The notes under the pieces: model-generated
The model's database searches: none
Seen by the model: the letters and a program-made list of their open reading frames with translations, nothing else
What the model was told of the DNA's origin: nothing
NCBI GenBank assembly: GCA_000004695.1
Contig: CM000150.2
Coordinates: forward strand, 2,112,001 to 2,176,000
Length of the DNA: 64,000 nucleotides
Direction: 5' to 3'
Source of the DNA: Dictyostelium discoideum
Taxonomy: Eukaryota
Made by a program: the position numbers and the translations under genes
Part shown: piece after piece, positions 1,025 through 54,548 of the stretch
How the letters are laid out: every line of letters starts with the position of its first letter
Position numbering within the stretch: the stretch's first letter is position 1

Positions 1025-4020
1025 TTATTTTCTTCCACCTTTACCTTTACCTTTTTTACCTTTACCTTTGTTGTTATTATTATTGTTGTTTGGTTTTTTT
1101 GGTTGGTTAGCGTTGGTGGTAGTTTGTTCAGTGGTAGTATTAGAGGCTTCATCGACTTCTTCACCTTCTTCGGTTTCTTCTTTGTTTTCAGTTTCAGTTG
1201 GTTTAGCTTGTTCAGTGGTTGATTCTTCTACTTTGGTTTCTTCTTGGACTGGTTCTTCAACTTTGGTTTCTTCTTGAACTGGTTCTTCAACTTTAGTTTC
1301 TTCTTGGACTGGTTCTTCAACTTTAGTTTCTTCTTGAACTGGTTCTTCAACTTTAGTTTCTTCTTGGACTGGTTCTTCAACTTTGATTTCTTCTTGAACT
1401 GGTTCTTCAACTTTAGTTTCTTCTTGGACTGGTTCTTCAACTTTAGTTTCTTCGGCAGCTTTTTCAGCGGCGGCTTCAGCTTCTAATCTTTCTTTTTCGG
1501 CTTGTGCAGCGGCGGCAGCTTCAGCTTCTAATCTTTCTTTTTCGGCTTGGGCAGCAGCGGCTTCAGCTTCTAATCTTTCTTTTTCTAAACGTTCAGTTTC
1601 TTCTTTTTCTAATCTTTCTTTTTCGGCTTGGGCAGCGGCGGCAGCTTCAGCTTCTAATCTTTCTTTTTCAGCTTGAGCAGCGGCAGCTTCAGCTTCTAAT
1701 TTTTCTTTTTCAGCTTGAGCGGCAGCGGCGGCTTCAGCTTCTAATCTTTCTTTTTCAGCTTGAGCAGCGGCGGCTTCAGCTTCTAATTTTTCTTTTTCTA
1801 AACGTTCAGCTTCTTCTTTTTCTAATCTTTCTTTTTCGGCTTGAGCAGCAGCTTCAGCTTCAGCTTCTAATTTTTCTTTTTCAGCTTGAGCAGCAGCAGC
1901 AGCTTCAGCTTCTAATCTTTCTTTTTCGGCTTGTGCAGCAGCGGCGGCTTCAGCTTCTAATCTTTCTTTTTCAGCTTGAGCAGCGGCGGCTTCAGCTTCT
2001 AATTTTTCTTTTTCTAAACGTTCAGCTTCTTCTTTTTCAGCTTGAGCAGCAGCGGCGGCTTCAGCTTCTAATCTTTCTTTTTCGGCTTGAGCAGCAGCGG
2101 CGGCTTCAGCTTCTAATCTTTCTTTTTCAGCTTGAGCAGCGGCGGCAGCTTCGGCTTCTAATCTTTCTTTTTCGGCTTGGGCAGCAGCGGCAGCTTCAGC
2201 TTCTAATTTTTCTTTTTCAGCTTGAGCAGCGGCGGCAGCTTCGGCTTCTAATTTCTCTTTTTCTAAACGTTCAGTTTCTTCTTTTTCTAATCTTTCTTTT
2301 TCAGCTTGAGCGGCAGCGGCGGCTTCAGCTTCTAATCTTTCTTTTTCAGCTTGAGTAGCAGCGGCGGCTTCAGCTTCTAATTTTTCTTTTTCTAAACGAT
2401 CAGCTTCTTCTTTTTCTAATCTTTCTTTTTCAGCTTGAACGGCAGCGGCGGCTTCAGCTTCTAATCTTTCTTTTTCAGCTTGGGCGGCAGCGGCGGCTTC
2501 AGCTTCTAATCTTTCTTTTTCAGCTTGAGCAGCAGCGGCGGCTTCAGCTTCTAATCTTTCTTTTTCTAATTTATCTGCTTCTTCTTTTTCTAAACGTTCT
2601 TTTTCAGCTTGAGCGGCTGCTGCTGCTTCTTGTTGTTGTTTTTCTAAATTTTCTTGAGCTTCCTTTTCATCTTTAATTCTCTTTTCTTCAGCTTCTTTGG
2701 CAACTCTTTCAGCCTCTTCCTTTTCTAAACGCTCTTTTTCTAATTTTGCTGCTGCTTCTTCTTTTTCTAAACGTTCTTTTTCTTCTTTTTCTTTTGAATC
2801 ATCAACAACTGGTTCTGGTTTTGATTCTTCAACAACTGGTTTTGATTCTTCGACTACTGGTTTTGATTCTTCGACAACTGGTTTTGATTCTTCAACAACT
2901 GGTTTTGATTCTTCAACAACTGGTGAAGAAGTAGTTGTAGTAGTTGTAGTTGTTGTAGAAGTAGTAGTAGTGTTAATATTTGATGATGGTGATTCATTTT
3001 TAGCATTTTCAATTCTTTCTTTAATCCATTCTAAAATATAAGTAACAAATTCTTCTTTAGCAAATTCATTATGAACTTCATGATACATATTTTCCCAAAG
3101 TTTTAAAGTTTTATCGACAGTTGATGGAACACGATCATAGAATTGTTGTGAAGCTTTTGGACAAGTGATTTTATCATCATTAGCGTGAACCAATAATAAT
3201 GGAGTATCAAATTGTGGTGCTAAATCAATGAGTTGTTCAGAACGTTGTAACATCCATTTAGCCATACCCAATGAGATTTTATTGTGAACCAATTTATCTT
3301 GTTTATATTCGTTTACGACTGCAGAATCTTTAGAGATTAAAGTTGGATCGATTGAATTGCTGATGGTCCATGATGGCATGAGACCACCCAATAAATTACC
3401 CATACTAAGTTTGACACCTGATACTTTGATTGCTGGTTTAATCAATGGTGATGTAACGATACAACCTGCTGGATGGTGATCTTTCTTCTTTAAATTGTAA
3501 TGAAGTGCTAAACAACCACCAAAACTATGACCATAGATAAAATGTGGTACATCGGTTTCAGCTGTTGATGCAATTAATTGAATATCTTTTAATGATTGTT
3601 CGAGTGATGGTGAATGACCTCTAACACCACTTGAAATACCATGACCTCTTTGATCGAATGCATTTACTTTAATACCTTGTTCTGCAAATCTACTAAAAAC
3701 ATGTTCATAACGACCACTATGTTCACCTAAACCATGAATCTAAATAATAAAAAGTTTTTTATTAAAATTAAGTTACACATAAATTTTTTTTTTTTTTTTT
3801 TTTTTTTTTCCCTCTTAATTTTTTTTTTTTTTTTTTTTCCCACGAATCTCAAAAATAAAAAAAAAAAAAAAAAATAATGAAAAAGAAGGGGTGAAGGGGT
3901 TTATTATTGGTTTTAAAAAACTTACCATGGTAACTGTGGCAATTGGTTTAACTTTTGGCTATGAAATATAAAAATAAATTATTAAGAAAATTAATATCCA
4001 TGCATTATTATTTGAATTTG

Positions 4021-8473: not shown

Positions 8474-9175
8474 TTATAATTTTACATTTGAACCTTGATT
8501 AACATCATTTGAGATACCAAAAAACAATTGTTCTGAAGCAGTTACAATGGCGGATAATCCATTCAATTGATCTTCATTTGATAATTTCCTTTTAAAAGAA
8601 CCAATTCCTACATTGGTCATCCTAGAGTTTTGATATGCTGGTGATGGTACATACTCTGAAATATTATAGTTATTATAACTACTATAGTAATTGTAACCAT
8701 TATTTTCAGTGGAATCCTTTGATGATGATAATTTATCAATATTATTATTATTATTATAATTATTTATGTTAAATGTTGGTGGGAAACCTTCTAATGCTGT
8801 ATTATTATTATTATTATTATTAATTAACTTATCATTATGATTTATTGATTGAAGATTTGGTGAGAGATTAGTTGGAGTATTAGTGGCAGATGAAAAATTT
8901 AGTGATTCTGATGATATTGTTGGTGATGTGGTTGTGGTTGTAGTAGTAGTAGTAGTAGTTGTTGAAGGTATTGGTGGAGAAGATGAAGATAATAGTGATG
9001 ATAAGAATGAAGATGATGAAGATGATGATTGTGATGAAAAAGAAGATGGTCTTGATAATGGTAAAGAATCATCTTGTTGTGAATTTGATTGTGATGAAAA
9101 TGAAGATGGTCTTGATAATGGTAAATGATCATCTTTTTGTTGTTGTTGTTGTATTATTTGTTGTTGTTGTATTAT

Positions 9176-9213
<38 letters not shown>

Positions 9214-10457
9214 GATTTGAAGATTCATTTAATAACATATTAATAGAGATATTTTTTTCTTTAACAGCCAATGCTTTCTCTTTACTAACTATATTTGCAA
9301 ATCTAATACCACAAGCATTACATAACGATTTACAACCATCGGGACCTCTACGCCATTGTGATGTTTGAGTTTCACCACATGAATGACAATATAATGAATC
9401 TAAAAATGGTGCAGGTGCTCTTGGTCTTCTTTTTCTTTTATTATTAGAAACACCATCTTCACTTATAATTTTTATTGATGTTGATGCTGTTGATATTGAT
9501 GTTTGTTGTGGTATATTATTATTATTATTATTAGTGGTGGTAGTAGTAGTATTTGATGGTGATGGTGGTATAGTAGTAGTTGTAGCAGTAGTAGAAGTAT
9601 TAGTAGTGGTTGGAGTAGTTTGTTGTAATAAATTAACTTTTTGACTGATTTGTTGATTAATTTGTTGTAATTCATTCAATTGTTGTTGATAGTATTGTTG
9701 TTGTAATTGTTGTAATTTCATTTGTTGTTCATCATATATATCAGTGGTAGTATTGGTTGAAGCAGTAGCACTACCTTTACTAGTTTGTTGCTTTTTATAT
9801 GATTTACAATTATTATTATTATTATTATTATTGCTATTATTATTTATAGTATTAATATTACTACTTAAAATACTAAAAAAATTATTACCACTTGTAGGTG
9901 GTGGTGGTTGTTGTGATTGTTGTGGTGGTGATATTATTATTGGTTGAGTATTATTTTCAAAAATTTTTGAAATATTTATAGTTTTTGAAAATTGTAATAA
10001 AGATTTTAATGATTCTTTATTTGATGGATCTGTTATAATTTGTTGAAATTCTGATTTTGTATTATTATTATTATTATTAATTGGTGGTTCATTTAAAAAC
10101 CTATATAAATAACTTTGATTTGAATATTGCGTCGTAAAATTTTCAATCATTAAAAATATCATTAATGATTTTTCAAATATACCTGATAAATCATAGCTAC
10201 TTGATGATATATCACTTAAAATTAATGATGATGATGAATTAACTTCATAACTATATTGTTGAATCTATAAAATAATAAATAAAAATAATAAAACGAATTA
10301 ATTAAAAATAAAAATAAAAAAAAAAAAAAAAAAATTTTAAAAAAAAAAAAATAAAATAAAATAAAATAAAAATTACTTTTTTCCAAATTAATTTATAATT
10401 TGGATTACTACATATTGAATTTGATGGAATGTATTTCAATGCCTCTTGAAATTCCAT
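8474..10457 (-). CDS. GATA-type zinc-finger transcription factor. Two exons: join(8474..10264, 10377..10457), minus strand.
   Basis: A single GATA finger is present: CHSCGETQTSQWRRGPDGCKSLCNACGIRFANI (C-x2-C-x17-C-x2-C plus a basic tail). There are long polyQ/polyN/polyT tracts. The upstream 27-codon exon (MEFQEALKYIPSNSICSNPNYKLIWKK) ends at a GTAATT donor, and a tatag acceptor joins it in frame to IQQYSYEV..., which runs into the track ORF 8474..10162. Confidence 0.7.
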
Positions 10458-21096: not shown

Positions 21097-21727
21097 AATA
21101 AAAATAAAAACTTACAAAAAATAAAATAAATAAAAAAATAAAAAGGTAACTGATTTGATTTGATTTCTTTTTTTTTTGGTTAATCTTATTTTAATAATAT
21201 TATTATTGTTTTTTATTTTTATTGCCGTTGTGAAAAAAAAGACTTTGAAAAATTTTAAAAAAAAAAAAAAAAAAAAATTTTAAAAAATAAAAATAAAAAA
21301 TAAAAAAAAAAAAAATAAAACAAAAAAAAAGATTTTTATACACATTTTTTAAAATTTTAGATAATATCCTACTTCTTATCTTTTTAAACTCGATCGTATT
21401 TTTTTTTTTTTTTTTTTAAACAATATTTTTTATTATTTTCCTATTATTAATTTAGAATCATTTATTCTTAAAAAAGTAAAAACTATATTTTTTTTTCTTT
21501 TTTAACTATCCATCTTGAGGTATGCGGATATTGAAGTTCTAGGTAATCCAACCCTATTGTTTTTAACAACACTTGTGAAAAAAAAAAAAAAAATTATGAC
21601 CTTCATATAATTTAAGAGTGAGAAGTAGGGTTGTGGATTTGTTAGGGGCGTTTTTTTTATTTTTTTTTTACATACAACCTAATTTTTTATTTTTCACACA
21701 CATATTTTCAAATAAAATATGTAAAAA

Positions 21728-21786
21728 AAAAAAGTCCAAATCCCTTTCAAATAATTTAACTCTCTTTTAATCAACTTTTATTATCA
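21728..21786. repeat. Left arm of an inverted-repeat pair. The partner is at 24244..24298.
   Basis: aaaaagtccaaatccctttcaaataatttaactctcttttaatcaacttttatt is the reverse complement of gat..aataaaagttgattaaaagagagttaaattatttgaaaggggatttggacttttt at 24244..24298. There is one indel and about 55 of 57 identities, with weaker similarity extending about 15 bp further. Confidence 0.8.
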
Positions 21787-21977
21787 AAATAAAAATAAAA
21801 ATAAAAATAAAAATAAAAATAAAGAAATATATAATAGCGGTCAACCCCACCATCATCTTCAACAACAACTTCACCATCATCTTGTTAATTAATTACACAT
21901 ACACTCTATCACACACCCTTATCAACTTAATTTATTTAAATCAAAACCCAACGAACAAACAATCAAACCATTAACAC

Positions 21978-22021
<44 letters not shown>

Positions 22022-22255
22022 AAAAAAAGAAAATTAACCAAAAAAAAAACACTTTATTAAACTTTGTTTTGATGAGTTAAAAATTATTTAGTATTCTGTA
22101 CTATTTACATTTTGATCTATAATAATTACTTTTTTCCCCAATTTAATAATAAAATTAATGGTTATATATGGTTGCATAATATTGTGTGACTCACCTCTAC
22201 CTGTTTTTCCAAGTGTAATTCCTGTTTTTACATGTGTGGTTACAATATCCTTATG

Positions 22256-22666
22256 TTATTGATGATAATCAGAAAAACTTCCATGAGGACCACTACTGAA
22301 ACCACCTCCAATAGAATGCCATGTATGACCTGGGTCAATTACGGGATGATCATGAGATGGCAATTCTGAAACTGTTAAAAGATGATTTGTTAAACCAACT
22401 CCATTTCCTGCACCTATTGGACATTTACCACGAAAATCTGGTTTTGAAAATTCATGTTCACTTGAACCAAATGCATCTCCAATTTGTCGATATAATTCTG
22501 GATATGTTAATTTATTTAATGGAGCTCCATCACAAAGAGACCAACCAACTGGTATTTCAATACCTGTAAAAATATTAACTGATCCAGGTTGGATTGAATT
22601 TTCAATTTTTTTTTCTAAATTTGCAACTGCAAGTTTTTGTTTTGTTTCAATGGCTAATTTTGACAT
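22256..22666 (-). CDS. Phage tail-collar domain (microcystin-dependent protein MdpB-like) protein, 136 aa, intronless.
   Basis: MSKLAIETKQKLAVANLEKKIENSIQPGSVNIFTGIEIPVGWSLCDGAPLNKLTYPELYRQIGDAFGSSEHEFSKPDFRGKCPIGAGNGVGLTNHLLTVSELPSHDHPVIDPGHTWH... This matches the Phage_tail_collar consensus (..IxxFAGxxxPxGWLxCDGxxLxxxxYPxLFxxIGxxYGG...FxLPDLRGRxPxGxGxGxGL...xxMPxHxH). It is a bacterial/phage-type domain sitting inside the inverted-repeat-bounded segment. Confidence 0.7.
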   Translation of the reverse strand: MSKLAIETKQKLAVANLEKKIENSIQPGSVNIFTGIEIPVGWSLCDGAPLNKLTYPELYRQIGDAFGSSEHEFSKPDFRGKCPIGAGNGVGLTNHLLTVSELPSHDHPVIDPGHTWHSIGGGFSSGPHGSFSDYHQ

Positions 22667-22689
22667 TTTCTTTTTTAATCTTTTTTAAA

Positions 22690-22974
22690 TTACTTTGAAC
22701 TTTGTAATAGTTTATATAATAAGCCAGATTTCTTGATATAAATACAACAGTGACAATAAATGGTAAGATAAACATTAAGATATTTGATGCTTCTTCTTGC
22801 TTTGATATCAGCATTTGCTAAAGTTTCTGCACAATTTACCATTGCATTGGATACAGCAGTTGAAGATTTTTCAAGACCTTTAGAAACTTGTTTCAAACCA
22901 TCACCAATTTCAGCTCCACCTTATCAACTCCTAAACCAAGAGCACCCAAACTAAAACCGATGATTTCCATAAAA
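22690..22974 (-). pseudogene. Small ORF encoding a glycine-zipper/amphipathic peptide with an apparent +1 frameshift: MEIIGFSLGALGLGVDK | GGAEIGDGLKQVSKGLEKSSTAVSNAMVNCAETLANADIKARRS... It lies immediately upstream of the tail-collar ORF on the same strand.
   Basis: The ATG at 22974 opens a 25-codon frame that hits a stop. One nucleotide later the next frame (track ORF 22690..22896) continues a sensible peptide. No intron of plausible length separates the two frames. It ends 23 nt before the tail-collar ATG. Confidence 0.3.
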
Positions 22975-24243
22975 AAAATAGAAAAAACTCACAAAATAAA
23001 TATCTAATAATGATTGGGGAGTTTTTTTATAATTATAAATTTTTTTTTTTTTTTTTTTTAATTTCAAGAAAAATAAATAATTATTAGAATTTTTAAAAAT
23101 AAATAACTGGTAGGAAACAGATATTGATAAAATAGAAGAACTATTTATTTTAGAAGCTAATGTGGAAGTTTTGATCGTGTTCTATTAAAATTATTAGAAA
23201 TTATTAACTTAATATTTTAAAAAAAAAAAAATAAAAATAAAAATAATAAAATTAAATTGGTGCCAAAGAAAAAAAAAATAATTAAATAAAAAAAAAATTA
23301 AATTAATAAATAAAAAAATTTTAATTAATTAAATAAAAAAATTAAATAAAAAAATTAAATAAAAAAAAAAATTAATTAAATAAAAAAAAAAAAAAAAAAT
23401 AATAATAATAATAATAATACAAAATTGGTTAATTATTTACAAATATTAATATTGGTTTAATAATTTTAAAAATATATTTGTTTATGGTGTTTATGTTCTT
23501 TTGTTATGTTTAAAGTGATCAAAAAATTATAATTCAAACTTGTATACTATATTCATAACAAGCTGGAAGGATGATGTCTATATCAAGAGGATCAGAAGTC
23601 CATGGGAAGGGTTTGCCGAATTTACTTGATGAATGATTCATTTGAAATTTAAAACATTATGATTAATCGAGACATTTTTATTATATTGAGTTTGATTTTA
23701 TTGTGGAGTTTTCCCCTTTTTTTTTTTTTTTTTTTTTTTAACCCTTGCCCCTTTTTTTTTTGTAAACAAACTAAAATGGCTTTTTAAGAATTTATTTTTT
23801 ATTTTCCCACAAAAAAAATTCATAATGTGGAAATTAATAAAATAATGTTTTAAAAAAAGGGTAAAAATTAATAAGATGTAGGGGACTGTAAAATTAACAT
23901 TACACAATATCAAATTTTTTTTTTTCCCACAAAATCTATTTTTATACCAGTTCCATATACATTTGCTTTTTATTTTTTTTTTTTTTGATTATTTTGATTT
24001 TTTCACATAAAGTGTCATCAACAAATTAAAAATTTAATTTAAAAAAATAAAAAAATAAAAAAAATAAAAAAAAATTTTCAACTGAAAAACCATTTTTTTT
24101 TTTTTTTGAATAAAAAAATAATAAAAACTTATAGTGCTTATATGATCATATGACATTATTAAATAAATAAGTTTTTTATAATTTTATTTTTTTTTTAATT
24201 ATATAATTTTACTAGTAAAATTATTTAATTAATTTTTATTTGA

Positions 24244-24298
24244 TCAATAAAAGTTGATTAAAAGAGAGTTAAATTATTTGAAAGGGGATTTGGACTTT
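24244..24298. repeat. Right arm of the inverted-repeat pair (partner 21728..21786).
   Basis: See the left arm. The two arms bound a 2.5 kb segment that contains the tail-collar ORF. Confidence 0.8.
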
Positions 24299-24448
24299 TT
24301 TTTTTTTTTTTTTTTTTTATAAAAAAAAAATCTTTTATTTGAATACATATTTATATCACAAACAATTTGTTAAAAGTAATAAGAGAAAACTAAATAAAAT
24401 TATTTTCAAAGAAATAATTTTTTTTTTTTTTTTTTTTATTTGGTTGAT

Positions 24449-24500
<52 letters not shown>

Positions 24501-24701
24501 CAAAAATTTTTTCAACCAGATTTTAGAATTTTATACAAATTAAAAAAAATAAAAAAACTATTATCTGATTTGTTTAATTGAATTATTAAATATTTATCTA
24601 ATTTTAGTGAATCTGATAAGCTTGAGAAACTATTTAATTTCAAATATTATTTGAGTAATACTTTAAAAGTTTTTTTAGTTTGGTAAATTTTAATTTAAAA
24701 A

Positions 24702-24743
<42 letters not shown>

Positions 24744-25155
24744 TAATATTTTTTTTTTCAAAAGAATTAATTTGTTTTTTTATTTTAATTAAACCCTAAA
24801 TTATTTATCTGAAAAAAAATTTTCGCTTTCCCAAACAGTTTTATTTTTTTATTTGAAAAAAAAAGAAACAATTTTTTGAAAGCTTCCAACTCAATAGCGT
24901 CAAATCTGATCGGAGTTTCAGTTGAAAAATGGGTTTTTTTTTTTTTACAATTTTTTTTAATTTTTTTTCAATTTTTTTTTTTTTTTTCATAAACAAAATC
25001 TTTTTTATTTTACTTTTTTTTTTTTTTTTTTATTTATTGTATACTAAATTTTAGTTTTATATATATTTTTTTTTTTTTGTATATTTAATTTTTTATTTAT
25101 TTATTTTGTAATATTTTTATTTTTTTGTAAATTAATAACCACACATAAAAACAAA

Positions 25156-27957
25156 ATGTCAGAAGAACCAACCCCAGTTTCAGGTAATGACAAACAACTC
25201 TTGAACAAAGCTTGGGAAATTACCCAAAAAAAAGTAAAATATTATTATTTTTTCTATTCAAAAAAAAAAAAAAAAAAATAAATAAATAAATATAATAAAA
25301 TTTTATTAATTTTTTTTATTATTATTATTATTTTTTAAAAATATTTAGACTTTCACAGCATGGTGTAATTCACATTTACGTAAACTTGGATCATCAATTG
25401 AACAAATTGATACAGATTTTACTGATGGTATTAAATTAGCTCAATTATTAGAAGTTATTTCAAATGATCCAGTATTTAAAGTAAACAAAACACCAAAATT
25501 AAGAATTCATAATATCCAAAATGTTGGTCTCTGTTTAAAACATATTGAATCACATGGTGTTAAATTGGTTGGTATTGGTGCTGAAGAGTTAGTTGATAAA
25601 AACTTAAAGATGACTTTGGGTATGATTTGGACAATCATTCTTCGTTTTGCCATTCAAGATATTTCAATTGAAGAATTGAGTGCCAAAGAAGCCCTTTTAC
25701 TTTGGTGTCAAAGAAAGACCGAAGGTTATGACCGTGTTAAAGTTGGTAATTTCCATACCTCATTCCAAGATGGTCTTGCCTTTTGTGCTCTCATCCATAA
25801 ACATAGACCAGATTTAATCAACTTTGACTCTTTAAACAAAGATGATAAAGCTGGTAACTTACAATTGGCTTTTGATATTGCCGAAAAAGAATTGGATATC
25901 CCAAAGATGTTGGATGTTTCCGATATGCTCGATGTCGTTCGTCCAGATGAAAGATCAGTCATGACCTACGTCGCTCAATACTACCATCACTTTTCTGCCT
26001 CTAGAAAAGCTGAAACCGCCGGTAAACAAGTTGGTAAAGTTTTAGATACCTTTATGTTGTTAGAACAAACCAAATCTGATTATCTTAAAAGAGCCAATGA
26101 ACTCGTTCAATGGATTAACGATAAACAAGCATCACTTGAATCACGTGATTTTGGTGATTCCATCGAATCTGTTCAAAGTTTCATGAACGCTCATAAAGAA
26201 TATAAAAAAACCGAAAAACCACCAAAGGGTCAAGAAGTCTCTGAATTGGAAGCTATCTACAATTCATTACAAACTAAATTACGTTTAATTAAACGTGAAC
26301 CATTTGTTGCACCAGCTGGTCTCACTCCAAATGAAATCGATTCCACTTGGTCCGCTTTAGAGAAAGCTGAACAAGAACATGCTGAAGCCCTCCGTATTGA
26401 ACTCAAACGTCAAAAGAAAATTGCAGTTCTCTTACAAAAATACAATCGTATTCTCAAGAAACTCGAAAACTGGGCCACCACCAAATCTGTCTACCTCGGT
26501 TCCAATGAAACCGGTGACAGTATCACTGCTGTTCAAGCTAAATTAAAGAATTTAGAAGCTTTTGATGGTGAATGTCAATCATTGGAAGGTCAATCAAACT
26601 CTGATCTCCTCAGCATTCTTGCTCAATTAACTGAACTCAACTACAATGGTGTACCAGAACTCACTGAACGTAAAGATACATTCTTTGCTCAACAATGGAC
26701 TGGTGTTAAATCATCTGCTGAAACCTACAAAAACACTCTTTTAGCTGAACTTGAAAGACTCCAAAAGATTGAAGACTCATTGGTCGAATTCGCCAAGAGA
26801 GCCGCTCAATTAAATGTTTGGATTGAAGCTGCCGATGATCATGTATTTGATCCAATCAATGTTGACTCTGTTCAAGGTGTCCAAGAAATTCAAGAGAAAT
26901 TCGACGCTTTCCTCCACGATCAATCACAACAATTCGCTGAATTGGAAGCCCTCGCTGCTTTAACTCAACAACTCCGTGAACTCGGTCGTTCTGAAAACGA
27001 TTATTCAGTCATTTCATACGATGAACTCTCTGCCAAATGGAATAATTTATTGGCTGGTATTGAAGAACGTAAAGTTCAACTCGCCAATGAACTCACCACT
27101 CAAACCAACAACGATGTTCTTTGCCAATCATTCTCTGTTAAAGCAAATGAAATTTCAGATTATGTCCGTGTTACTTTAGATGCCATCTCACAAAACACTT
27201 CATCAGATCCACAAGAACAATTAAACAATATCCGTGCTATCATCACCGCTCATGCTGAAAAGAAACCAGAACTCGATGAATTATACACCATTGCTTCTCA
27301 ACTCGAAGAAGCTCAAGTTGTCGATAACAAACATACTCAACACAGTTTAGAATCAATTAAATTAAAATGGGATAAACTCAATACACTCGCTAAAAAGAAT
27401 GAACAAGTTGTTGAAGGTGAAATTCTTGCTAAACAATTAACTGGTGTTACTGCTGAAGAATTAAGTGAATTTAAAGGTATGTATAATTTATTTATTATAA
27501 ATATTAATTAAATTATTTAAAACTCGTCCAATGATTAATAAATAACTTTTTTTAATTAATTAACATGAACGAAAAAGCCTGCTTCTCACATTTCGATAAG
27601 GACAACGATAACAAATTAAATCGTCTTGAATTCTCCTCTTGCTTGAAGAGTATCGGAGATGAATTAACTGAAGAACAATTAAATCAAGTCATCAGTAAAA
27701 TCGATACCGATGGTAATGGTACCATTTCATTCGAAGAATTTATTGATTACATGGTTTCATCACGTAAAGGTACAGACAGCGTTGAATCAACTAAAGCTGC
27801 ATTCAAAGTTATGGCTGAGGATAAAGATTTCATTACTGAAGCTCAAATTCGTGCTGCTATCTCTGATTCTAAACAAATTGATTATTTACTCGCCAGTATG
27901 CCAGCTGTTGAAGGTGGTTTTGACTACAATTCATTTGCTGAAAAATTATACCAATAA
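25156..27957 (+). CDS. abpA: Alpha-actinin (F-actin cross-linking protein). Three exons: join(25156..25233, 25349..27476, 27578..27957), 861 aa.
   Basis: Exon 1 (MSEEPTPVSGNDKQLLNKAWEITQKK) is followed by exon 2 starting TFTAWCNSHLRK, with two calponin-homology domains (..DGIKLAQLLEVIS.., ..LLLWCQRKTEGY..DGLAFCALIHKHRPDLI..) and four spectrin-like repeats. The ..EFKG donor is GTATGT. Exon 3 begins (A)CFSHFDKDNDNKLNRLEF and carries two EF-hands (DKDNDNKLNRLEF, DTDGNGTISFEEF). This matches Dictyostelium alpha-actinin as I recall it. Confidence 0.9.
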
Positions 27958-28100: not shown

Positions 28101-28230
28101 TGGGAGAATTCAAGACGATTTAATTTGTTATCCTTATCCTTATCGAAATGTGAGTAGCAGGCTTTTTCGTTCATGTTAATTAATTAATTAAAAAAAGTTA
28201 TTTATTAATCATTGGATGAGTTTTAAATAA
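28101..28230 (-). repeat. Inverted partial duplicate of the abpA intron-2/exon-3 junction (original 27519..27645), about 95% identical.
   Basis: The reverse complement of 28101..28230 reads ttatttaaaactcatccaatgattaataaataactttttttaattaattaattaacatgaacgaaaaagcctgctactcacatttcgataaggataaggataacaaattaaatcgtcttgaattctccc. This matches 27519..27645 with a few substitutions. Confidence 0.8.
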
Positions 28231-29134: not shown

Positions 29135-29200
29135 TATGTATGTATGTATGTATGTATGTATGTATGTATGTATGTATGTATGTATGTATGTATGTATGAT
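29135..29200. repeat. (ATGT)n microsatellite, about 16 units.
   Basis: A perfect tetranucleotide run is visible. Confidence 0.95.
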
Positions 29201-29202
29201 TT

Positions 29203-29572
29203 ATAAATAACTTTTTTTAATTAATTAATTAACATGAACAAAAAAGCCTGCTTCTCGCATTTCTACAAGGATAAAGACAACAAATTAAATCGTCTTGAGT
29301 TTAGTTCTAGCTTGAAGAGTATCGGAGATGAATTAACTGAAGAATAATTAAATCAAGTCATCAGTAAAATCGACACGGATGGTAATGGTACCATTTCATT
29401 AGAAGAATTTATTGATTACATGGTTTCATCACGTAAAGGTACAGACAGCGTTGAATCAAATAAATGCTGCTATCCCTGATTCTAAACAAATTGATTATTT
29501 ACTTGCCAGCATGCCAGCTGTTGAAGGTGGTTTTGATTACAATTCATTTGCTGAAAATTATTAATAAATTAA
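29203..29572 (+). pseudogene. Degraded direct copy of the abpA 3' EF-hand exon plus about 40 bp of the preceding intron (original 27540..27960).
   Basis: Colinear, about 90% identical: ..ttaattaattaacatgaacaaaaaagcctgcttctcgcatttctacaaggataaagacaacaaattaaatcgtcttgagtt.. It contains an in-frame stop (GAA TAA where abpA has GAA CAA), an internal deletion of about 57 bp (the ..TKAAFKVMAEDKDFITEAQIRAA.. region is missing) and a changed terminus. It has no upstream exons. Confidence 0.75.
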
Positions 29573-52824: not shown

Positions 52825-52853
52825 TGCGGCATATTTCTCCATGTCGAAAAATT

Positions 52854-52925
52854 TAGCTTCTCTAGGTTTCGATCCTAGGACCTCGAGGTTATGGGCCTCG
52901 CACTCTACCCCTGAGTTAAGAAGCT
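52854..52925 (-). tRNA. Initiator tRNA-Met (anticodon CAT), 72 nt.
   Basis: AGCTTCT-TA-ACTC-AGGGGTA-GAGT-G-CGAGG-CCCATAA-CCTCG-AGGTC-CTAGG-ATCGAAA-CCTAG-AGAAGCT-A. All four stems pair perfectly. The anticodon loop is C-C-CAT-A-A. The T-loop is GATCGAAAC with A54 and A60, and there are three G-C pairs in the anticodon stem, which are hallmarks of eukaryotic cytoplasmic initiator tRNA. Confidence 0.85.
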
Positions 52926-52985
52926 GTAGATACAAGCTTGTTGAACCATGAGTTTCCACCATTTAAATATACACTGAGTACCAGA

Positions 52986-53126
52986 AAATTAAAAAAATTC
53001 AAAAACATCATCTCCCTACAACTCGAAAGATTTAGCAAACACTGGAACTCACCACTACACACAGTAGCACTACCATTAAACCTCAACAAATATATTACGT
53101 CACCAAACACACTCTACACCCCCCAA

Positions 53127-53725: not shown

Positions 53726-54400
53726 CTATAAAATATTTAATAATAAAATGAGATATCTCAAGAAGAAGCAACTAAAATTGCGTTATCCATTCAAAAAAAG
53801 AAAATTAGGGAAGTTAAGATATTTTGATAGGATATAAAAATGTTTAATTATTAAACATCAAACAATTTACAAATTTCTTAATCAAATTCTTAATATCAAA
53901 AGTCAAAAACTCTGAATTTCAAAAAAATCAATAATAATCAAATTAAAAATTACAAATTTACAAACTCCAATTCACAATTTCTAAGATTACACATATCTGA
54001 TCTTAAGTAATCATTGTTGCAGAATGGTCTGCAAAACTTTGGAACTTTTATCTTTGATCAATATCATTCAGAGGGTGGCTTCTTATGTTGGCATCATATA
54101 GAATTGTTCTGGATAGTTCTTCAATGACCGTTACAAAGAGAGTAGGTGATATGGTTTCCCTGTTTTACTCCTCTTTTTATAGTAAAGGGGAGGGGCTTTC
54201 CATTGATTTCTATCCTGGGTGTGAGTTTCATAATTAGGTTTGTTAGGTTGGTGGGAACTTTGATACGTTGAACCGTTCTAAGTATTGATTTAGAAAGAGT
54301 TATTTATCTCAGGTTTTTTTAAATTAAATTATCTTAAATTCCATTATATTCTGGTACTTTTTTTTTTTGAATTGGAGGAATTATATTCTGGTACTGATTG
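53726..54400. mobile_element. Unclassified repeat/retroelement remnant between the TRE5-like modules and tRNA-iMet copy 2. It may be an LTR or element terminus facing the second tRNA.
   Basis: GC-richer, non-coding-looking sequence with a TATA-like tataaaaag. It abuts the conserved about 60-bp upstream flank of tRNA copy 2. A 15-bp direct repeat gtaccagaatataat (x2) at about 54340..54392 brackets a 21-bp insert. Confidence 0.3.
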
Positions 54401-54446
54401 TATATCCAAATGGTGGAAACTCATGGTTCAACAAGCTTGTATCGAC

Positions 54447-54518
54447 AGCTTCTTAACTCAGGGGTAGAGTGCGAGGCCCATAACCTCGAGGTCCTAGGAT
54501 CGAAACCTAGAGAAGCTA
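54447..54518 (+). tRNA. Initiator tRNA-Met (anticodon CAT), 72 nt, identical to copy 1 but in opposite orientation.
   Basis: Same sequence as 52854..52925 reverse-complemented. About 60 bp of upstream flank is also shared, with one mismatch. Confidence 0.85.
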
Positions 54519-54548
54519 AATTTTTCCACCATAATTAAAGAGGTCAAA

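Follow-up and report, generated by a model that had tools for sequence, protein, structure and literature searches.

Introduction

Proteins with a collar domain are well known, as are endogenous viral sequences in protist genomes and local inverted duplications. Collar-domain proteins have been reported in virophages and in a family of proteins of OLPV, a large eukaryotic DNA virus (PMC3671162). Regions derived from nucleocytoplasmic large DNA viruses (NCLDVs) have been reported in Acanthamoeba and other amoebae (PMC5203793, PMC12220804). Here we analyze a 64 kb stretch of Dictyostelium discoideum DNA (GenBank assembly GCA_000004695.1, contig CM000150.2, positions 2,112,001 to 2,176,000; 21.7% GC), hereafter called the window. 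Within it, a segment of about 2.5 kb (21728–24298) is bounded by an inverted repeat and carries a gene with a phage tail-collar domain. The segment sits in a gap of ~4.4 kb between two divergently oriented genes. To its left lies a class-I phosphodiesterase gene on the minus strand, the D. firmibasis orthologue of which has the Pfam domain PDEase_I; to its right lies abpA, which encodes alpha-actinin A. In text searches of the literature, we found no report of a collar gene, a capsid-like gene, VLTF3 or an endogenous virus in Dictyostelium, and to our knowledge no virus of dictyostelids has been described.

A first-pass annotation of the segment, made from its sequence alone, had proposed a transposon or a horizontally acquired cassette. 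The reading that we favor as the probable one is different: the segment would be a decayed, lineage-specific relic of a foreign, probably virus-derived insertion, and its inverted repeat a rearranged duplication of the flanking host DNA.

Orthologous loci were fetched via alpha-actinin orthologues, and abpA was the anchor for every synteny comparison. The Dictyostelium sequence covered amounts to ~300 kb, that is, the window plus ~240 kb of fetched loci, including three copies of a virus-like element. The loci are from D. citrinum (L011), D. firmibasis (L012), two wild D. discoideum strains (L046 and L047) and two D. cf. discoideum genomes (L014, on contig JBTAPH010000036.1, and L015). L016 and L017 are element-bearing loci on another contig of the same genome as L014 (GCA_054859205.1). 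L008 is a near-identical assembly of the AX4 type, L001–L006 are Logan assemblies (several sequencing runs) of other D. discoideum strains, and L007 is a phage contig.

Results and Discussion

The inverted repeat lies where the first-pass annotation had placed it, to within a few bases. Its core consists of 61 nt (21723–21782 on the plus strand against 24306–24246 on the minus strand), of which 60/61 (98%) are identical. The sole difference between the cores is a single-base indel (CCC vs CCCC). An exact 38-mer, TTTCAAATAATTTAACTCTCTTTTAATCAACTTTTATT, is common to both arms and has no third site in the window; none of 100 dinucleotide-preserving shuffles produced such a match, even with three mismatches permitted. 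Gapped similarity of the arms reaches further, over ~21693–21834 against 24176–24352 (about 140–175 nt). It extends into a (TTTTA)n tract on the inner side and, past a homopolymer run, into TTTTATTTGAA-ATAT on the outer side. The left arm has (TTTTA)n inside, and an A11 run and ATATTTTCAAATAAAATATGT outside.

The sequence of the arms is also found in genomes without the payload, i.e. the DNA between the arms. D. citrinum (L011, ~8859–9006) and D. firmibasis (L012, ~8960–9093) have one copy, which is oriented like the right arm and continues toward abpA in the same right flank. The payload is absent, the intergenic DNA can be aligned, and there is ~0.9 kb where AX4 has ~3.2 kb. The wild strains L046 and L047 (about 95.5% identical around abpA) have neither the payload nor the left arm. 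They have one complete copy of a longer host sequence that includes the arm, which we call T. A stub of a second, direct copy of T lies ~480 bp upstream of the complete copy and is followed by sequence corresponding to window positions 24040–24185. Such a stub is what would be left by an internal deletion in an ancestral structure in which an insert stood between a left and a right copy of T (T1 and T2). In a nine-sequence alignment of the T core, T is single-copy at the same locus in the relatives, and the right flank is colinear with abpA in all genomes. The left arm is absent from D. citrinum, D. firmibasis, L046 and L047, and the corresponding copy in L015 is direct. Because the payload-free genomes keep one copy in the same place and the same orientation, the right arm is ordinary host DNA, not part of a mobile unit, and the left arm is a second, inverted and truncated copy of it.

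The payload is lineage-restricted. It is present in sequences of the AX4 type (the window, L008 and the Logan contigs) and in L015, and is absent from D. citrinum, D. firmibasis and D. dimigraforme. The empty sites in D. citrinum, D. firmibasis and the two wild D. discoideum strains, together with a collar gene that has no close relatives (see below), bear out the proposal of a compact cassette of foreign derivation.

The same sites bear on the other proposal, namely that the segment is a non-autonomous terminal inverted repeat (TIR) or foldback DNA transposon, with the arms as its termini and the collar gene as captured cargo. A near-perfect inverted repeat of 61 nt around a compact payload would suit such an element. 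However, the payload-free sites hold one arm, in place and in unchanged orientation, and the homologous copies in L015 are direct and ~550 bp long. No target-site duplication is present outside the arms: the A11 run on the left and the T23 run on the right are reverse complements and not direct repeats, and beyond these runs ...AAATAAAATATGT on the left and ATAAAAAAAAAATC... on the right have no direct repeat in common. Neither the list of open reading frames (ORFs) nor Pfam gave a transposase-like match in the segment. The core is found nowhere else in the window or in the fetched loci, the three copies of the virus-like element included, and no other copy of a segment bounded by these arms was seen there. 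Exact scans for the T core in the JGI metagenomes and IMG/VR also gave no match. We therefore regard a transposon as highly improbable. The first-pass annotation had itself held that local duplication would be likelier if there were no target-site duplications and no other copies, and within the ~300 kb examined we found neither. Its further suggestion, that the arms are palindromic promoter or terminator elements of a foreign locus, is unsupported because the arm sequence is older than the insertion.

The insertion in L015 differs in form from that in the window. Here T is a direct repeat of ~550 bp (2830–3378 and 8939–9506; 78% identical), each copy of which matches window positions 24172–24700. 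The repeat flanks an insert of 5.56 kb, which contains the collar gene and an intact ORF for a 187-aa membrane protein, both arranged and oriented with respect to abpA as they are in the window. The collar gene (~205 aa) is intact save for one frameshift in an A-run (~7310; A10 vs A9 in AX4). This A10 run could be a homopolymer assembly error, in which case the gene would be intact in that strain. The public annotation fuses the L015 collar gene with the upstream ORF into a single product of 354 aa. The other two ORFs of the insert have counterparts in L016, at 74% identity for the 327-aa ORF and 58% for the 132-aa ORF. These counterparts lie ~0.5–2.5 kb from where L016 matches the T-abutting end of a virus-like element in L014. 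The collar and membrane-protein genes of L015 are thus physically linked to homologues of genes of that element.

In L014, the DNA to the left of T is wholly different and consists of dense, intron-less ORFs (L014 1–8922). Two genes of the element present there stand back to back, one for a capsid-like protein of 414 aa and the other for a VLTF3-like protein of 470 aa. The capsid-like protein is of the NCLDV type (Pfam Capsid_N, E=5.3e-5, 23.3 bits, just under the cut-off of 24 bits) and has a weak match to PBCV-1 MCPv3 (E=0.075). The VLTF3-like protein scores 25.4 bits (E=1.4e-5) against a curated cut-off of 25. Other products are a large coiled-coil protein, which measures 804 aa where it is intact (in L014), a fiber-like protein rich in repeats (463 aa) and families of small paralogs. 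Pfam searches with ten further ORFs of the element gave nothing informative, and no polymerase, packaging ATPase, protease or integrase was detected in the ~45 kb of element read. L016 and L017 are two more copies; the copies are 98–99.6% identical to each other, and the capsid-like protein is identical. AX4 has a fragment, annotated as DDB_G0277467, that is 95% identical to the capsid-like protein. Between D. cf. discoideum and D. dimigraforme, this protein is 97% identical while the alpha-actinins are 88% identical, which suggests that the element may have moved recently between species.

The L014 copy of the element ends exactly at the position that matches window position 24246, the inner edge of the right arm. 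The breakpoints of several lineages share this part of T. The L014 junction, the end of the stub in L046, the start of T2 in L046, the edge of T1 in L015 and the inner end of the AX4 repeat are all located in ~25 nt, GATCAATAAAAGTTGATTAAAAGAGAG. Because they fall in the same short zone, these breakpoints suggest that the zone may be a fragile or preferred site. A bolder version of the favored reading takes the AX4 cassette as the integration fossil of a still-mobile, capsid-encoding dictyostelid DNA element, with T as its preferred integration or breakage site. We put this forward only tentatively and think it rather less than an even prospect.

The surroundings of abpA in L014 are also unusual. 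The gene, with ~0.9 kb upstream and 0.7 kb downstream (L014 8923–13104), is flanked on both sides by DNA homologous to the element-rich contig of L016 and L017. This arrangement could be the product of two flanking insertions or of a relocation of abpA. An LTR (long terminal repeat) retrotransposon is located further downstream of abpA. The phosphodiesterase and cation ATPase genes, which are the usual neighbors of abpA, are not found within 10 kb.

Both payload genes are pseudogenes in the window. The collar ORF (22256–22666, minus strand) matches Pfam Collar (PF07484) over profile positions 1–57 of 57, with E=5.7e-15 and 55.5 bits against a cut-off of 24. Conservation of its C terminus continues past the TAA codon, in the same frame, down to ~22087 (motif HNIMQPYITINFIIK; ...GESHNIMQPYITINFIIK...). 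Compared with the L015 allele, the gene has deletions of 33 nt and 6 nt and has gained the stop codon. The contigs L001–L006 (99.3% identical; equal to window 22005–23057) share the in-frame TAA and the other defects with AX4. They additionally carry a 5-bp deletion (GGTCA) in the collar pseudogene and two substitutions. L006 has 23 unrelated bases at its 5' end. L008 differs from the window only by homopolymer lengths and a few single-base differences. The pseudogene state is thus seen in a stop codon common to independent assemblies, in further strain-specific deletions and in frameshifts. The first-pass annotation was right in taking the two ORFs between the arms as foreign-derived, but neither is an intact gene: one has the TAA, and the other has frameshifts and lacks 374 bp.

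When 1.84 billion representative proteins were searched exhaustively with HMMER, the collar protein had no close relative among them except its own alleles. The remaining matches (best 150 listed) are 30–46% identical, and the few whose context was examined are phage tail-fiber-type proteins. In IMG/VR, the collar protein matches only phage tail-fiber relatives, at ≤37% identity, and the membrane protein has no match. The GC content at third codon positions (GC3) of the collar gene is 9%, vs 25% for abpA, and the contigs of the nearest phage relatives have an overall GC content of 33–62%. Because of these differences, the composition argues for long residence of the collar gene in an AT-rich genome or virus, not for a recent bacterial transfer.

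We considered whether the collar gene could have been transferred directly from a bacterium or phage to the amoeba during feeding, unrelated to the capsid/VLTF3 element, with the virus-like genes in L015 and L014 as separate, later insertions into a fragile spot. All detectable relatives of the collar protein are bacterial or of the phage tail-fiber type, and the phage contig L007, with three collar genes and a peptidase, is an example of such a relative. In addition, the copies of the element that were read showed no collar gene, and independent breakpoints clustered in the same ~25 nt of T would fit a fragile or hot site. However, the codon bias of the collar gene is extremely AT-rich (GC3 9%). 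The gene is closely spaced with, and has the same orientation as, a membrane-protein gene for which no phage relative was found. In L015, the collar gene shares a single insertion, bounded by one pair of host duplications, with element genes. Collar-domain proteins have also been reported in the virophages and the OLPV family cited above (PMC3671162). Taken together, we judge direct transfer to be unlikely, with perhaps one chance in a few of being correct.

The origin of the left arm has to be considered separately. It may have arisen recently in the AX4-type lineage as an inverted duplicate of the right arm, through fold-back or template-switch repair, with the rest of the history as in the favored reading. 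The arm cores are identical at 60/61 positions vs 78% for the L015 copies, and the 3' region of abpA has the same style of local inverted and direct duplication. On the other hand, (TTTTA)6 and TTTTATTTGAAAATAT, which flank the left arm, are closer to the ancestral flanks of T (as in L015, L014 and D. firmibasis) than to the flanks of the AX4 right arm. Therefore, an older copy with a homogenized or conserved core is favored, and a recent duplication is a possibility that we hold with some doubt. A simple inversion of a T1-containing segment was also tried as the origin of the left arm and was rejected; the flanks that it predicts do not match the sequences on either side of the arm.

The course of events that we propose, with the relic as its outcome, is as follows. 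After D. citrinum and D. firmibasis had branched off, an ancestor of the D. discoideum complex would have received foreign DNA at a site ~0.9 kb upstream of abpA. Its most likely source would be the capsid-encoding virus-like element that is multi-copy in the sister genomes. The insertion would have left the host sequence T (~0.5 kb) duplicated on both sides. Decay of the insert would then have differed by lineage. L015 would have lost little and kept T as a direct repeat around its 5.6 kb insert. L046 and L047 would have lost nearly the whole insert and kept no more of the left copy of T than the stub. The insert of the AX4-type lineage would have lost its left part and come down to ~2.4 kb; in that lineage, the left copy of T would also have been truncated to ~145 nt and inverted, by a small inversion or an inverted re-duplication during break repair. 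The inverted left copy and the ancestral right copy would together make up the inverted repeat seen in AX4. The collar and membrane-protein genes would have been inactivated afterwards. We infer, by comparison of the loci, the single ancestral insertion, the viral source of the collar gene and the manner of the inversion.

Several observations weigh against this explanation. There is no viral hallmark gene in the AX4 segment, and remnants of element ORFs were undetected there even at E≤5. Neither the collar gene nor the membrane-protein gene was found in the ~45 kb read of the element (L014, L016 and L017), and they are assigned to it by linkage in a single genome (L015). The nearest detectable relatives of the collar protein are bacterial and phage tail-fiber proteins, at 30–46% identity. 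The assignment of the capsid is marginal (23.3 bits vs a cut-off of 24). An AlphaFold model of the capsid-like protein, built on a 4-sequence alignment, was unusable (pLDDT 32), and a profile search of the PDB with the 4-sequence alignment gave chance matches only. The AX4 arms (60/61) are far more alike than the L015 copies (78%), a difference that calls for gene conversion, for selection acting on the core or for an inverted duplication of later date. Finally, about half of the AX4 payload (21835–22086 and 22971–24040) matches nothing elsewhere.

T may have a function of its own. A block in it, GAG[T/C]TAAATTATTTGAAAG, is invariant across nine aligned sequences from six lineages (window positions 24262–24281 and 21747–21766), and the surrounding intergenic DNA is only ~77–80% identical. 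Located ~0.9 kb upstream of abpA, this block may be a cis-regulatory element. One could go further and take the repeat itself as functional, as a duplicated cis-regulatory element or a pair of small-RNA genes that is kept as two copies. The invariance of the core block of ~20 nt and the T-run on the outer side of each arm are compatible with this. However, one copy suffices in most lineages, the left copy adjoins pseudogenes, and there is no Rfam or transfer RNA (tRNA) match. At the gathering score, Rfam gave only two tRNA-Met genes in the whole window; by E-value over 21300–24800, it gave a single chance-level match to mir-1, and ARAGORN found no tRNA near the segment. Therefore, the arms are not a known RNA gene, and we think it quite improbable that the repeat was retained as a functional pair.

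The features of the locus are collected in Table 1.

Table 1. Features of the segment and its flanks, in window coordinates.
Feature	Position	Strand	Remarks
GC-richer host island just outside the left arm	21464–21633		Present in L046/L047 at 82–86% identity
Left arm (T1'), an inverted, truncated (~145 nt) second copy of host sequence T	21693–21834	−	Core 21723–21782
C-rich non-coding island (21836–21980, 33% GC), then an A-run of ~40 nt	21835–22086		AX4-type haplotype only
Phage tail-collar-domain pseudogene	22087–22666	−	ATG at 22666; in-frame TAA at 22256–22258
Small membrane-protein pseudogene	22690–22970	−	At least 2 frameshifts, and 374 bp missing internally between 22792 and 22799, relative to the intact L015 version
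AT-rich non-coding DNA with a GC-richer island (23480–23960, 24.5% GC)	22971–24040		No ORF, no Rfam match, no match in other genomes
Inner flank of the right arm	24040–24185		In L046/L047 directly after the partial direct T1 remnant
Host sequence T upstream of abpA, including the right arm (core 24246–24306; extended 24176–24352)	24172–24700	+	Orthologous to the single copy in insertion-free species
abpA (alpha-actinin A)	25156–27957	+	Three exons; spliced product 100% identical to the AX4 protein (homology search)

No coding sequence beyond the two pseudogenes was seen in the segment. The non-coding DNA at the left end of the payload (21835–22086) has no match in L015, L014, L016, L017, L046 or the outgroups. 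The longer stretch on the right (22971–24040) is presumed to be residue of the insertion. The sequence TCCCACAAAA occurs twice on the plus strand of the payload, at 23805–23814 and 23925–23934, and no Rfam family is located downstream of either. We take it to resemble the Dictyostelium upstream sequence element that presumably lies ~60 nt before small-RNA genes. RNA folding of the GC island outside the left arm (21505–21655) was no better than that of shuffled sequences (z = +0.5).

When the window was compared with itself over its full length, two further systems of dispersed repeats came up and no others, one at abpA intron 2/exon 3 and the other an inverted pair of tRNA-Met genes. The pair consists of two identical tRNA-Met (CAT) genes, each with ~35 nt of flank on either side, which together form an inverted repeat of 141 nt (96% identical) at 52846–52986 and 54386–54526, ~1.4 kb apart. 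The 2005 D. discoideum genome paper reportedly describes paired identical tRNA genes.

At abpA, the intron 2/exon 3 junction (27513–27636) is repeated downstream of the gene. An inverted copy (28103–28230; 94% identical) lies ~150 bp past the stop codon, and a direct copy of ~360 bp (29196–29557; 91–96% identical) lies ~1.2 kb further on. The gap between abpA and the next gene is ~1.9 kb in the window vs ~0.3 kb in D. citrinum. These 3' copies are present in L008, L015, L046 and L047, and L014 has the inverted copy; none is found in D. citrinum, D. firmibasis or D. dimigraforme. Because the copies exist in the D. discoideum complex and not in the outgroups, both flanks of abpA were rearranged in the same lineage.

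Implications

The odd phage-like ORF beside a well-studied cytoskeletal gene would thus be explained as dead cargo, and its palindromic borders as a repair scar and not the signature of a mobile element. The AX4 segment should not be annotated as a transposon. The relic itself is inert, yet it points to an undescribed virus-like element in the species complex of a major model organism. The D. discoideum complex seems to have acquired DNA of a multi-copy element with capsid-like and VLTF3-like genes, and its turnover appears to be ongoing. If this element is confirmed as a virus or a virus-like mobile element, this model organism would gain a DNA virus system of natural origin. Integration, host duplication and decay could then be traced stepwise in strains whose insertion at one locus is full, partial or lost.

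Comparison with known systems

The segment resembles the TIR transposons of Dictyostelium (DDT-A/B/S, thug-S/T and Tdd-4/5) in having inverted repeats around a few kb of DNA. Unlike in these families, set apart here by description, the repeats are a single-copy host sequence that is left in payload-free sites, and in the sequence examined there is no transposase, target-site duplication or other copy.

The collar protein is similar to PF07484 proteins of phages and bacteria, which are small tail-fiber or MdpB-like proteins. Its Collar domain is complete (55.5 bits), and H-N-x-M-Q-P-Y, the usual C-terminal motif, is present. The protein differs from them in that its gene is in a eukaryotic nuclear genome, has host-like AT-rich codons, is inactivated in AX4 and has ≤46% identity to any of them among the matches listed.

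The AX4 relic is also comparable to endogenous NCLDV or polinton-like insertions in protists. It is lineage-restricted, its genes are foreign and intron-less, and pseudogenization and deletion have been rapid; in addition, sister genomes link the payload to a multi-copy element with capsid-like and VLTF3-like genes. In contrast to such insertions, the AX4 relic has no hallmark gene, and the flanking host duplication measures hundreds of bp and is not a short target-site duplication.

Finally, the inverted repeat is similar to local segmental duplications of D. discoideum, in which short stretches of host DNA are inverted within a few kb, as in the tRNA-Met pair and at abpA intron 2/exon 3 in this window. 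It differs from these in that the borders of a foreign insertion coincide with it and that its orientation varies between sister lineages.

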